DNA from: Auanema rhodensis
Taxonomy: Eukaryota; Animalia; Nematoda
Reading direction: 5' to 3'
Length of the DNA stretch: 64,000 nt
NCBI GenBank assembly: GCA_964057225.1
Contig: CAXKVF010000076.1
Coordinates: 372,001-436,000 of the forward strand
Shown here: one piece after another, positions 52,470-58,008 of the stretch
Layout: each line of letters starts with the position of its first letter
Position numbering within the stretch: the stretch's first letter is position 1
Position numbers and translations under genes: made by a program
Notes under the pieces: model-generated
Seen by the model: only the letters and a program-made list of their open reading frames with translations
What the model was told of the DNA's origin: nothing
The model's database searches: none

Positions 52470-52487
52470 TTTATTTATTTATTTATT
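52470..52487 (-). repeat. 3' simple-repeat tail AA(TAAA)4 of the LINE
   Basis: Plus strand tttatttatttatttatt abuts the satellite. Short tandem-repeat tails instead of poly(A) are typical of CR1-group elements; the tail also contains AATAAA. Confidence 0.9.
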
Positions 52488-52980
52488 CGTTCTATATCAC
52501 AGATTCTTGATAATCAAAAGCTTATTGTGAACGTAGGTATACTGCGAAAAAGCATCTTACAATATGAACTGGGGAAAGTAAATTAAAAATTACAATCAGA
52601 AAAATTAGAAAAAGGATGAAAGTGGTAAATAGTTGTATAATAGAATAGACTAGAATACAAGAAATATAACAAAACGATATTGAAGCATATGAGATTCTAT
52701 TACTATTTCTCAGCAGTTTGTGAAAACAAAAACAGATTATGTTCAGCAAAGTTTGATGAACTGACTCTTTAAATATAGCTGATCAGGTGCGGTGGAACTC
52801 AGAAATGAGTCAAGCCCGTTCTAATAGCAAAGAGAAAAACTGTTACTCATTGCTACGACTGATGTTGATACAGTATAGATGACAGTAGCAGTCTGGCAGA
52901 AAAAAAAAGTAAGAAAAGAACCTTGTATGTTAATTGAAAAGAAAACGATGATACAGATTAAAAAAAAAAAAAAATAATGG
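52488..52980 (-). other. LINE 3' UTR (about 490 bp, U-rich)
   Basis: Non-satellite sequence between the RT stop (52981) and the tail, with long sense-strand T runs. Confidence 0.85.
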
Positions 52981-54859
52981 TCACGATAAAATATGAGACA
53001 AGATATGTTTCCGGAAAGAATGTTTTGTACGAAGGCTGACTATGGCTTCAGGAAGAGAGTTCCATAGATTTACAGTTCTGTATTCAATTCCATTCCTTGT
53101 TTCTGTCCTCCATAGAGTAGGATGAGCTAGATTCCATTGGTGTCTGCGCAGAGAATTCAGATTCTTGATAATGAAAAAAGATTGTGAGTTTCCTGTGGCT
53201 TCTATTGTTATATGAGCAAAATAGAACAATAGATCAGAAAGAACCCTCCTAGTTATCAGATCTTCAGTTTCAAGATAAGATAGCTGATCTTTGTAAGTTA
53301 GGTCAAGACCGGCTCGGCCAAAGATTGCTTTAAAAAACTTTTTCTGAACTTTTTCTATTCGTTGTTTGCCTGCAATGTTCTGTGGTGACCAGATAACTGA
53401 TCCATATTCAAGTATGGGTCGGACGTAACAGCTGAAAAGTTTGAACAATAATTTAGGACATTTAGAGTAGAAACAACGGAGAATAGTTCGGCATTTGACG
53501 GCCGCAATACTACAAATTGAATTAATGTGTTTTTCGAAAGACAAGTTATTTTCCGTCCAAATACCCAGATCTTTGTATGCAGATACTATAGAGAGAGATG
53601 AATCGCCAAAAGTGAAATTATTAATGTTGTGATAATTAGATGATTTGTTAGAGACAATCATTACTTTAGATTTTTCGGTGTTGACTTTCATTTTGTTATC
53701 ATGACACCATTTGTAAAGAGAATTAAGAGCATTTTGAAGGCTCTCAGGGTTACAACTATGAAGTTTTAGATCATCAGCATATAAAATGGGATGAACATCG
53801 GATGTGAATAAGGAAGTTATGTCGTTTATGTAAAACAGAAACAGTAGAGGGCCAAGAACCGTTCCTTGAGGAACCCCACATGTAAGACTAACAGGGTCGG
53901 ATAGACTTTTGTTGATGAGTACAGAGTAAGAACGGTTTTGGATAAAAGATCCAAGAAAATTAAGAAGAGACCCACGAATTCCAATAGATTTCAATTTTGC
54001 AAAGAGAATGGAGTGATCAATGAGATCGAATGCTTTTGAGAAATCAATAAACGCAACAAAAACTGTATTTTTATCATCAATAAGTGATCTCCATTTGATA
54101 TGGCTGGAAACAAGGGCTGTTACAGTGCTGCGTTTAGGAAGAAAAGCGTGCTGAACATTGGAAATGCTGCCCGAGGATACACCAAAATGAAGAAGGGGAG
54201 ATCGAATAAGTCGTTCAAAGACTTTAGATAAACTTGGGGTTAGTGAGATTGGACGGTAATTAGAAGGATCAGAAGGGTTGCCTTTCTTGAAAACCGGACG
54301 TATCCAAGCTGTTTTCCAGTCAGGAGGACAAGAAGAAGAAACAAGGAGGTTATGAAAAATAAACGAGAGAGGATTGCAGAGGGTGCCTGCACATTGTTTG
54401 AGAAAGTAGTACGGAATTCCATCCGGAGAAGTAGATGCGCGCGAAGGAAGGTGAGAAAGAATGTTGAAAACCTTTTCAGGGGAGATGTCGATGAAGTCAA
54501 TGACTGATGGAGAGTAATTGAGAAGATGAGAGTAAGTGGAAGATGAAGAGGGTTTGACAGCAAAGACGGAGGAAAAAATTTCAGCTTTGTCTACGTCAGA
54601 GAAAACCAAAGTTTCGTTGATTTGTAGAGTAGGGATATCAGAAGAGTCTTTACCAAGTCGTTCGCGACAGAATTGAAAAAATGCTTTTGAATTGTTGGTA
54701 GAAGCTATGTTGTTTTCATCAATGGCAGATTTGAGTTTGATGAGTTTATCTAAGGTGACAGATAGCTTTTTGCGAAGAAGCTCATCCTGAGCGAAAAGAG
54801 AGTTGCTTAACCGGTTAACACGATTGTTAAGTTTCTGAATGTCACGATCAAGTTTTTTT
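52981..54859 (-). CDS. ORF2 C-terminal part: non-LTR reverse transcriptase plus CR1-type C-terminal domain (continues the endonuclease frame across a 1-nt frameshift)
   Basis: SPDGIP, W.TA.I.PVFKKG, NYRPISLT, QHAF, FIDFSKAFD, GVPQGTVLGPLLF, YADD, KDLGI, YVRPILEY, WSP and WNSLP, with no internal stops. The track start at 54888 is a GTG. Confidence 0.96.
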
Positions 54860-55801
54860 TCTTTTCTTTGCCTTTTTGAATGGGACACAGCTTTGAATTA
54901 TTGATTGGACAATTGCAATAAACTTAGAATAGGAAGTTATAGCGTTTAGACCACATAATTCAGTAGCGAAGTCAATGCCAGCTAAAAGGCTATTTATTTT
55001 ACCATAATCGGCCGAGAAAAAGTTACGACTAGAAAAAGAGGAAGAGAGAGAAGAGGGCCTGGAAGTAGCAACTTTGTTGATTTGAGCAAATGTGAGAGGA
55101 TCCAAAATAATGTTAAAGAAAACCGAGTAATGATCAGATTGGCCAAGAGGGCTATTGCGAGAAATGTTCTCTACACAGTGAACACTGTTGGTGATAATGT
55201 AATCCAAGATGTTTTTACCTCTGGTTGGGAAAGTAACTAATTGACTGGATGAAGACTGTTGAAGAAAGTTGAGAATAGATGAAGTAGAGGGGGAACTGCT
55301 TGACGAATGGATGAGATCCCAGTCAATGTGAGGGAAATTAAGATCGCCTGTTAAGAAAAACCTGCGGTTCGAGATAAGAGTTTGAAATTCGGTTAGAAAA
55401 AAAAGAAAGTCAGAGTGCTGAGATGATGGAGAACGATAGCAGATTGAGAAAACGACGTCAGAAGGTATAATGAGAACATTGAGGTATTGAACAGTTGATT
55501 GAGAAGGAGAGCATGAGAGAAGACGACTATTAATGTGTTTTTTAATATAGAGGAGGACTCCTCCTCCTCGAGAAGTTGATCTGTCATCACGGAAAATGCA
55601 GTAAGAATCTCTCAAAGGAAGGGAGCTAGAGTTGAAATCAGGAAACAGCCAGGTCTCAGATATAGCAATAATGTCTGGACTGAGAGTCGAATGAACAATT
55701 GGTATTAAGTGTAATTTATTGACAATAGATCGTGCGTTATAACAAGAGACTGTAATTTTACTACATGCAGCAGTAGAGATTGTTGATTGGAAATTAACGA
55801 A
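54848..55801 (-). CDS. ORF2 N-terminal part: APE-type (EEP fold) endonuclease plus linker; no AUG, start inferred at the +1 frameshift site
   Basis: Catalytic motifs YNARS, DIIAISETWL, DR..RGGGVLLY, YRSP, GDLNFP..DW, PTRGKNILD and SDH are all present. The track start at 55861 is TTG and the frame contains no Met. Confidence 0.92.
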   Translation of the reverse strand, partial: FVNFQSTISTAACSKITVSCYNARSIVNKLHLIPIVHSTLSPDIIAISETWLFPDFNSSSLPLRDSYCIFRDDRSTSRGGGVLLYIKKHINSRLLSCSPSQSTVQYLNVLIIPSDVVFSICYRSPSSQHSDFLFFLTEFQTLISNRRFFLTGDLNFPHIDWDLIHSSSSSPSTSSILNFLQQSSSSQLVTFPTRGKNILDYIITNSVHCVENISRNSPLGQSDHYSVFFNIILDPLTFAQINKVATSRPSSLSSSFSSRNFFSADYGKINSLLAGIDFATELCGLNAITSYSKFIAIVQSIIQSCVPFKKAKKRKKT

Positions 55802-55805
55802 AGGA
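55794..55805 (-). promoter_or_regulatory. Putative programmed +1 ribosomal frameshift site TCC_TTT_CGT_TAA at the ORF1/ORF2 junction
   Basis: Plus strand ttaacgaaagga; in the ORF1 frame it reads UCC UUU CGU UAA, an in-frame match to the PA-X motif. The +1 frame (TTC GTT AAT TTC CAA = FVNFQ) is the endonuclease ORF. Confidence 0.75.
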
Positions 55806-56873
55806 TGTTTGGCTGGGCAGATTGGACGGGGAATTAGGCAAAGTAGATGTATTTCTAACAATGTTAGCAGTAGGATCTGGAACAGATTTAGCTCGGCGAG
55901 AAGGGTTTTTTCTTCTTCTTTGGCTGCTACATCTTTCTTTGTTTATTGGAGCGGGCTGTCCCTTAGTTATAGGCCGGCCTCTTCTACCAGATTTAGACGG
56001 GGGACTAGAATCAAGGTCATGCGTAAAAATAGGCATGTCAGACATTGGAGCAATGCATGAATTGGTAGTTTCAGAGTCCAAGCCTGTAGGGGAAACAACA
56101 TATTTAGCACTGGATGTGTCTTTTGGGGCAGTGCCTGTGTTGGTGAGTCTACGAGGTACTTTTATAAGCTTTAGATCTCGAACAAGAAAAATGAATTCAG
56201 TGTCGTCAGAGTTTTTGCTTTTGGCTTCGTCACGAAGCCGTTTTTCTAGTTCCACCTCAAAGGGTAGATAATCACGACGAACAAATGTTTTGGATAGTGA
56301 GTTGGAAATTTTAGGTTTGTGAGATCTTATAGCTGCTATAACAGTATCTCGAATACTGACCGAAGGACACGTTATGATAAGTGGACCAGGGGACCCTGAT
56401 TTGAGGGTGCAGCGAGTAACGAATATGTGATTGGAATTGAGTAAAGAAATAAGACTAGTATCACTGCAGCTATCAAAAACAAGTTTGAGAAGAGAACGGG
56501 CATCGCTAGGCAGATCAGGTGACGTGACTGGAACCCGGAACCAGAGAGCTCTCAAGGAACGGTGAGCAAATTTAGATTCTTCTAACCTAATTTTATTCAC
56601 TTCAGTTATAACAGTATTTGAACACGGAAGTGTAGGCAATATGCAAGCACTTTCGTTACCCATGAAAGCAGTGAACTTATTTTCTAAAGCGTTGAGTCTT
56701 GAGTTGAACTCAGTTTCAATTACTTTCAAACGAGATTCATGCAATGCGATACAGTTTTTGATACTATGCAGGTCGCTTTTGATTTCTAGAGAAAAACTTG
56801 AGAAAGTGGAATGAAGAGATTCCGTGAGAGATTTCAGAGAAGCAGTAAGAAACTCGGGAGTGACTGTAGACAT
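55794..56873 (-). CDS. LINE ORF1 protein (359 aa, MSTVTPEF...QTSFR): coiled coil, RRM-like/CTD region, basic disordered tail
   Basis: First ATG after the pyrimidine tract is at 56873. Heptad-like segment IKSDLHSIKNCIALHESRLKVIETEFNSRLNALENKF; PGPLIITCPSVSIRDTVI and FVRRDYLPFEVELEKRLRDEAKSKN...VRDLKLI resemble ORF1p RRM/CTD motifs of invertebrate CR1-like elements; position directly upstream of the endonuclease. The track's 81-aa Phe-rich extension to 57116 uses a non-ATG start and translates UTR. Confidence 0.85.
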   Translation of the reverse strand: MSTVTPEFLTASLKSLTESLHSTFSSFSLEIKSDLHSIKNCIALHESRLKVIETEFNSRLNALENKFTAFMGNESACILPTLPCSNTVITEVNKIRLEESKFAHRSLRALWFRVPVTSPDLPSDARSLLKLVFDSCSDTSLISLLNSNHIFVTRCTLKSGSPGPLIITCPSVSIRDTVIAAIRSHKPKISNSLSKTFVRRDYLPFEVELEKRLRDEAKSKNSDDTEFIFLVRDLKLIKVPRRLTNTGTAPKDTSSAKYVVSPTGLDSETTNSCIAPMSDMPIFTHDLDSSPPSKSGRRGRPITKGQPAPINKERCSSQRRRKNPSRRAKSVPDPTANIVRNTSTLPNSPSNLPSQTSFR

Positions 56874-57168
56874 AATGACAGAGCGTAAAAAGTAAGGAAA
56901 GAAAAAATAAAGATAAAGGAAATGATAAAAAGAAGAAAAATAAAAAGAAGAAAGAAAGGAAAAAAGAAGATATAGAGAGGATATGAAAAAGAAAAGAAAG
57001 AGAAGAGAGAGAAAAATGAAAGAAAAAAAGAAAAAGGAAATAAATGAATACGGAAAAAAAGAAAAAGAAAAAAGAAGAAAAAAGTACCTTACTAAAACCA
57101 ATCCGGCGTAAAACAAGAGTAGACTTCGGTTGCGGCGGGGTTGGAGCAGTAGGGAGACAACCGACCAC
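56874..57168 (-). other. LINE 5' UTR: about 85 bp of mixed/GC-richer sequence followed by a T/C-rich tract of about 200 bp
   Basis: Plus strand 56887-57083 is almost entirely A/G; it lies between the 21-bp array and the ORF1 ATG. Confidence 0.8.
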
Positions 57169-58008
57169 GAGGAGTCGAAAATGTAGTGTGAGGAGTCGAA
57201 AATGTAGTGTGAGGAGTCGAAAATGTAGTGTGAGGAGTCGAAAATGTAGTGTGAGGAGTCGAAAATGTAGTGTGAGGAGTCGAAAATGTAGTGTGAGGAG
57301 TCGAAAATGTAGTGTGAGGAGTCGAAAATGTAGTGTGAGGAGTCGAAAATGTAGTGTGAGGAGTCGAAAATGTAGTGTGAGGAGTCGAAAATGTAGTGTG
57401 AGGAGTCGAAAATGTAGTGTGAGGAGTCGAAAATGTAGTGTGAGGAGTCGAAAATGTAGTGTGAGGAGTCGAAAATGTAGTGTGAGGAGTCGAAAATGTA
57501 GTGTGGGAGTCGAAAATGTAGTGTGAGGAGTCGAAAATGTAGTGTGAGGAGTCGAAAATGTAGTGTGAGGAGTCGAAAATGTAGTGTGAGGAGTCGAAAA
57601 TGTAGTGTGAGGAGTCGAAAATGTAGTGTGAGGAGTCGAAAATGTAGTGTGAGGAGTCGAAAATGTAGTGTGAGGAGTCGAAAATGTAGTGTGAGGAGTC
57701 GAAAATGTAGTGTGAGGAGTCGAAAATGTAGTGTGAGGAGTCGAAAATGTAGTGTGAGGAGTCGAAAATGTAGTGTGAGGAGTCGAAAATGTAGTGTGAG
57801 GAGTCGAAAATGTAGTGTGAGGAGTCGAAAATGTAGTGTGAGGAGTCGAAAATGTAGTGTGAGGAGTCGAAAATGTAGTGTGAGGAGTCGAAAATGTAGT
57901 GTGAGGAGTCGAAAATGTAGTGTGTGGAGTCGAAAATGTAGTGTGAGGAGTCGAAAATGTAGTGTGAGGAGTCGAAAATGTAGTGTGAGGAGTCGAAAAT
58001 GTAGTGTG
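57169..58008 (-). repeat. 21-bp minisatellite, 40 copies, forming the 5' end of the LINE (plus strand GAGGAGTCGAAAATGTAGTGT; sense CACACTACATTTTCGACTCCT)
   Basis: 57169-58007 is 839 bp = 40x21 minus 1. The only deviations seen are a 1-bp deletion near 57506 and an A>T at 57925. Confidence 0.98.

Follow-up and report, generated by a model that had tools for sequence, protein, structure and literature searches.

A putative PA-X-type +1 frameshift site at the ORF1 stop of a LINE from Auanema rhodensis and of related LINE families

A LINE found in a 64,000-nucleotide stretch of Auanema rhodensis DNA (the window, meaning the whole stretch that was analysed) ends its first open reading frame with UCC_UUU_CGU and a stop codon, and its second open reading frame has no AUG start. 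Judged from the sequence and from comparison with related elements, ORF2 is probably translated through a +1 frameshift of the influenza PA-X type at this site, giving a predicted ORF1–endonuclease–reverse transcriptase (RT) fusion of about 1296 aa. An established recoding signal would here be placed among elements for which our searches gave no report of it, a proposal with strong comparative support.

The insertion and its surroundings

The window is a 176-bp satellite (298 + 34 copies) split by one 5.5-kb insertion. TAAT flanks the insertion on both sides (58012-58009 and 52469-52466), a duplication of at most 4 nt. The following features were assigned:

58008-52470, minus strand: LINE insertion, beyond which the satellite is back in phase
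57169..58008, minus strand: array of a 21-bp unit in 40 near-perfect copies, which opens the insertion at its 5' end and separates the satellite from the LINE 5' UTR
56874..57168, minus strand: 5' UTR, pyrimidine-rich
55794..56873, minus strand: ORF1, 359 aa (ATG at 56873), with coiled coil, RRM-like and C-terminal domains and then a tail ending SFR
55794..55805, minus strand: TCC_TTT_CGT_TAA, the last ORF1 codons, predicted +1 shift site and ORF1 stop
54848..55798, minus strand: 5' part of ORF2 in the +1 frame, a 20-codon lead-in and an APE-type endonuclease, with no ATG
54853..54860, minus strand: A8 run breaking ORF2 in the window copy, A7 in the four sequencing runs compared
52981..54897, minus strand: 3' part of ORF2, RT and C-terminal region
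52470..52980, minus strand: 3' UTR with an (AATA)n tail at its end

Because the 176-bp satellite keeps its phase from one flank of the entire insertion to the other and TAAT stands at each edge, the 21-bp array likely arrived together with the LINE. It is possibly a tandem promoter; the unit had no match in the 105 loci of this study.

LINEs of the CR1 group have a 3' end in a short tandem repeat and produce little or no target duplication. The window LINE has an (AATA)n tail and no more than the 4-nt TAAT on each side, and its ORF2 encodes an APE endonuclease and an RT with no RNase H in the Pfam scan, as expected for this group. From these features, a best RT match in C. brenneri and sub-threshold PHD matches in ORF1 of two related loci (L014 and L006), the element appears to be a near-intact CR1-type LINE. 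In the RT tree, which contains no named CR1 references, the window element was placed on a long branch and the backbone was weak.

ORF1 had no Pfam match, and a word-based search for homologues of ORF1 gave no match either. The ESM Atlas returned only unnamed clusters (0.85-0.90). When the structure model of ORF1 (pLDDT 72.7) was submitted to Foldseek, the best 10 matches were all human LINE-1 ORF1p (best E 9.5e-5), so that the modelled protein has an L1-type ORF1 fold. The tail of about 110 aa is of low confidence in the model and likely disordered.

The ORF1–ORF2 junction

The preliminary description of this DNA had ORF1 ending in TCC TTT CGT TAA, and these codons were confirmed at 55805-55794 on the minus strand; TCCTTTCG occurs once in the 4.7-kb element. 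UCC_UUU_CGN stands in the frame of ORF1, as in PA-X. The endonuclease (Pfam Exo_endo_phos, E 2.8e-13) is encoded in the +1 frame relative to ORF1, which is open from 55942 and runs to its stop at 54848 without a Met codon. In the RT frame (Pfam RVT_1, E 5.7e-34) no ATG occurs before 53691, past the YADD motif; the phase, the opening at 55942 and the place of this first ATG agree with what had been described. The overlap of 149 nt between ORF1 and ORF2, also noted before, is present in the window and is incidental, as the +1 frame of L005 and L014, two loci described below, opens just 4 codons before the motif.

After a +1 step at TTTC the predicted reading is ...TSF|VNFQ..., with the N(ARS) of the first endonuclease motif 20 codons on, matching the entry point of about 20 residues before this motif that had been proposed. 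The fusion was counted at 358 codons up to the Phe and 938 after the shift, 1296 aa in total with A8 (54860-54853) taken as A7, which reproduces the earlier figure.

Mass spectrometry located the PA-X site of influenza A virus (GLWDSF|VSPR), re-pairing of P-site tRNA-Phe from UUU to UUC being favoured, and the shift of about 0.7-1.3% was lower when UCC was changed and abolished by UUC_AGA (PMC3498833). The window junction resembles it in nine identical bases, in their position in frame, in the open +1 ORF and in the predicted F|V junction (PMC3498833). The viral site differs in standing early in a long overlap, towards its 5' end, whereas the LINE site closes the zero-frame ORF, belongs to a chromosomal retrotransposon and would give an essential enzyme as shift product. 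No downstream stimulatory RNA structure was found at the window junction (z -0.56 to -0.95), in line with PA-X, for which a distal element is apparently not needed (PMC5644247, in the part available).

By analogy with PA-X, tRNA-Phe in the P site would re-pair from UUU to UUC while CGN occupies the A site and UCC the E site, with an efficiency of roughly 1%. The majority of ribosomes would halt 0-2 codons on and release ORF1p, and roughly 1 in 100 would read on into ORF2. Through the ORF1 tail, which is likely disordered and could serve as a linker, the enzyme would then be attached to ORF1p trimers in a ratio like that of gag to gag-pol. A -2 shift was also considered and rejected, since tRNA-Phe would presumably be unable to re-pair on CCU.

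Stability across sequencing runs

Contigs from 4/4 sequencing runs, belonging to three studies, cross the junction without an indel and with no listed difference at 55678-56081, and one A is missing at 54853 in contigs of all four. Identity of the contigs to the window is about 99.8%; they may represent the same locus, and one run may be the source of the window. With the junction unchanged and A7 present in every run, the +1 offset is not a copy-specific indel, an explanation that was rejected, but the A8 break is. Differences between runs and window numbered 23, of which the 11 located in ORFs, far from contig ends and on main contigs were classed as 8 non-synonymous and 3 synonymous. None creates an ORF2 ATG, and the 8 against 3 carry no signal of selection in either direction. 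Short 80-88% matches to window positions 54004-54065, 54287-54357 and 53077-53123 on other contigs of the same runs are further related LINE families in the host.

An indel confined to this copy and an ORF2 AUG in other copies were among the observations that the preliminary description had set against its own reading. The former was not borne out, 4/4 runs having the same offset at the junction; an in-frame AUG close to the ORF1 stop does occur in one of the related families below (family C).

Four LINE families recovered without regard to frame

Metagenome contigs were searched for TCCTTTCG followed by a gap of 40-70 nt, codons for N[AV]RS and then codons for E[TS]WL. Neither gap of this pattern sets the reading frame; the motif codons themselves are fixed by it. 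The 17 matching loci comprised 10 LINE endonucleases, as judged by tblastn, and 7 chance matches (3 in the +1 frame, 1 in 0 and 3 in -1). The LINE loci fall into four families:

Family A: L005, L014 and L011
Family B: L006 and L010
Family C: L007, L008, L009 and L016
Family D: L017

All ten have the endonuclease in the +1 frame relative to TCC_TTT_CG with no stop from the motif to the endonuclease, and in all ten the motif is in the ORF1 frame with the ORF1 stop 0-2 codons past the Arg codon, features that the pattern did not require. The zero frame is open for 388-469 codons in L014, L006, L007, L008 and L009, where it is unbroken and closed inside the contig, and for 46-328 codons in the other five, where it is cut by the contig end or broken. 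The check proposed beforehand, that the motif be kept at the ORF1 end with ORF2 always in +1, thus held in 10/10 loci from four families. Beyond the UCC_UUU_CG used in the search, the third base of the Arg codon varies between CGT, CGA, CGG and CGC and is not always the final U of the UCC_UUU_CGU first described.

Identity between families is 24-53% for the ORF1 cores, and those endonucleases with long matches are 28-30% identical to that of the window. ORF1 of the window and of L014 show no BLASTP similarity (best E 3.3), yet have like ends. Four tests (phase, ORF1 frame, stop distance, open frame) were passed, given the ORF layout of each locus, by 1-3 of the 31 allowed positions per locus, which puts the chance of the layout at about 1e-5 to 1e-4 over four families; this figure overstates independence because the families are related, as the identity of their ORF1 cores shows, and their support is not fully independent.

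The window, L005, L014 and L017 lack an in-frame AUG for ORF2 in the region of the ORF1 stop and have no +1-frame AUG before the middle of the endonuclease or later. L006, L010 and L011 have +1-frame AUGs upstream. The motif of L005, L014 and L011 is followed by a SART1-like TAATG pentamer, the ATG of which is in the -1 frame and opens a short ORF only.

Viral contigs gave 3 chance matches to the pattern and no LINE, no match to the endonuclease pattern and no relative of the L014 ORF1. A loose TTTCG pattern in five genomes remained at control level.

Distribution and other junction types

An endonuclease-only pattern matched 42 loci on genome contigs, of which 33 are real endonucleases and 27 have enough upstream DNA. 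TTTCG was found in the zone in 0/27 of these unselected loci, most of which represent other LINE lineages, and 11/837 positions in unselected loci passed the four tests. The 33 LINE endonucleases among these 42 matches (L021-L062) were found in prokaryote representative genomes and are most likely due to eukaryotic host contamination of metagenome-assembled genomes.

The endonuclease of L045 is near that of family A (37%), and its ORF1-like and ORF2 frames are in line. In L045 and L105 the ORF1-like region and ORF2 share one frame with one stop between them, and an AUG stands two codons before the first endonuclease motif.

A second, -1-type junction was observed in the CR1-like loci L093-L104 of genome G005. 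ORF1 ends in TTT TTA AAC TAG (e.g. L101, 1380-1410), and the AUG-less ORF2 follows in the -1 frame after TTTAAAC_TAG, with a G-run past the stop.

In L024 and L044 the endonuclease frame becomes open some 130 nt upstream of the ETW codons, just about 4 codons ahead of a zero-frame stop; two Phe codons precede this stop, and there is no AUG. This is possibly a stop-assisted +1 site in another LINE lineage.

The position and phase of the motif are kept in four families at the DNA level and in three ORF1 homologues at the protein level. In the RT tree, families A and C belong to one supported clade of 21 rows without being sisters, and the window is placed outside it. The frameshift signal is patchy across LINEs, and the tree fits ancestry with loss and convergence alike.

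ORF1 homologues at the protein level

Sixteen ORF1 homologues were found without using the motif. The three closest (P0121-P0123; E 2e-27 to 2e-22, 31-33% identity), from Auanema sp. JU1783, have the C-termini TSFRK, STFRK and NSFR on tails that align poorly. The 13 weaker homologues (E 2e-8 to 7e-4), three of which are ORF1-ORF2 gene models and several partial or fused, have no FR end; one ends TSTF.

A search with the ORF1 alignment gave 6 matches, all family-C-like: the ORF1 of L007 itself, one ending SFQ and four ending before the tail. The SFQ end, that of the family-C ORF1 P0142, may reflect either decay or a variant of UUU_C. Read in +1, the site gives Pro-Phe, which is present in 2/22 predicted ORF2 N-terminal extensions and absent in 20; the two cases precede the first motif by 21 and 13 residues, close to the spacings of families C and A.

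Alternative explanations

ORF2 could instead be a protein of its own, produced by termination-reinitiation that starts past the ORF1 stop on a near-cognate codon or, in family C, an AUG, with the motif acting as a termination/reinitiation signal. This is rather unlikely, even though it is the established route in LINEs (PMC2881922, in the part available). Its main support is that the motif is always 0-2 codons before the ORF1 stop, unlike in the viral cases. All four family C loci (4/4) moreover have an in-frame AUG 6 codons past the motif, 11-14 nt after the ORF1 stop, and in the window the near-cognate codons ATC (55780) and ATT (55756) follow the stop in frame. Human L1 ORF2 can be produced without its AUG (PMC1965478, PMC5009743), which also weighs against a frameshift. 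Reinitiation, however, predicts no fixed +1 phase with a frame open through the motif, and this was seen in the window and in 10/10 loci, with endonuclease and RT open in +1. The sequence is also identical to the site at which mass spectrometry demonstrated a +1 shift (PMC3498833), and the TAATG of L005, L014 and L011 offers its ATG in a frame other than that of ORF2.

Counting against the frameshift are, besides the family C AUG, the upstream AUGs of L006, L010 and L011, the SFQ end of P0142, the 13 of 16 homologues without FR and the presence of Pro-Phe in just two of 22 extensions.

Ser/Thr-Phe-Arg may also be a conserved C-terminal protein motif of ORF1p, its codons and phase being incidental. 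The Auanema evidence is at the protein level only and the codons were imposed by the search pattern, both of which fit this idea, but it leaves the fixed +1 phase, the open +1 frame and the AUG-less ORF2 unexplained, and the motif closes a low-confidence tail that is poorly aligned between families. We regard it as very improbable.

Trans-splicing is common in nematodes, and GT directly follows UUU_C in the window, but a spliced or trans-spliced subgenomic mRNA in which ORF1 and ORF2 are fused in frame, or which provides a start codon, is the least credible explanation, as this GT is missing in L007 and L017 and trans-splicing brings no AUG.

Comparison supports the earlier reading of the junction as a PA-X-type +1 shift, the shift itself being what we infer from it.

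Comparison with known recoding systems

In amalgaviruses and related viruses UUU_CGN occurs with all four Arg codons and an ORF1+2 polymerase fusion has been proposed (PMC5052127), and ASXL1 also has a UUU_CGN site (PMC5644247). All come from RNA viruses or from a cellular gene and have overlaps that run to hundreds of bases, and no LINE is among them in the excerpts of these papers.

Human L1 and silkworm SART1 are, like the window element, bicistronic LINEs with an L1-type ORF1 fold and a low-level APE-RT ORF2 that depends on ORF1 translation (PMC2881922, PMC5009743, PMC1965478). Their ORF2p is separate and reinitiated, whereas the window LINE lacks an ORF2 AUG and is predicted to make a fusion. 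A 2016 review of frameshifting, in the part available, classes LINE ORF2 under unconventional initiation (PMC5009743).

For LINE groups 1-2 of Paramecium, synthesis of ORF2 by +1 frameshift or reinitiation has been proposed, and no PA-X-type site was found named in the available part of that paper (PMC5405496). Its sequence file has two TCCTTTCG matches, inside endonuclease-/RT-like coding sequence as far as the excerpts show, and line breaks may hide more. A frameshift to ORF2 was also proposed for TRE5-A and TRE3-A of Dictyostelium, but in the -1 direction (PMC5911963).

Yeast Ty1 and Ty3 differ from the window element in being LTR elements with other shift sites. That of Ty1 is CUU_AGG_C. 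They resemble it in making a retrotransposon gag-pol fusion by a +1 shift near the ORF1 end (PMC5911963, in excerpt).

The literature search, which had most subscription journals, Repbase and Dfam outside its scope, found no report of UCC_UUU_CGN or UUU_CGN in a non-LTR element. The word 'frameshift' occurs 0 times in a CR1 survey (PMC13343379). One match (PMC11580914) proved to be a piRNA oligo.

Implications

What is known of LINE ORF2 synthesis comes from few elements, and reinitiation that releases free ORF2p is the assumed route. It is probable that an old and widespread CR1-type branch, in nematodes and other animals, makes its endonuclease-RT as a gag-pol-like ORF1-ORF2 fusion through UCC_UUU_CGN at the ORF1 stop. 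The signal would then be a general eukaryotic recoding cassette common to RNA viruses and retrotransposons, and at this one junction CR1 lineages would change from one mode to another among +1 shift, -1 shift and AUG reinitiation. If true, this accounts for ORF2s lacking an AUG that are cut short or reported as dead by annotation pipelines, and LINE loci hold many natural variants of the PA-X signal, including an unusual stop-adjacent context. The picture of the LINE ribonucleoprotein would also change, with the enzyme bound covalently to the ORF1 trimer in a low, fixed proportion.
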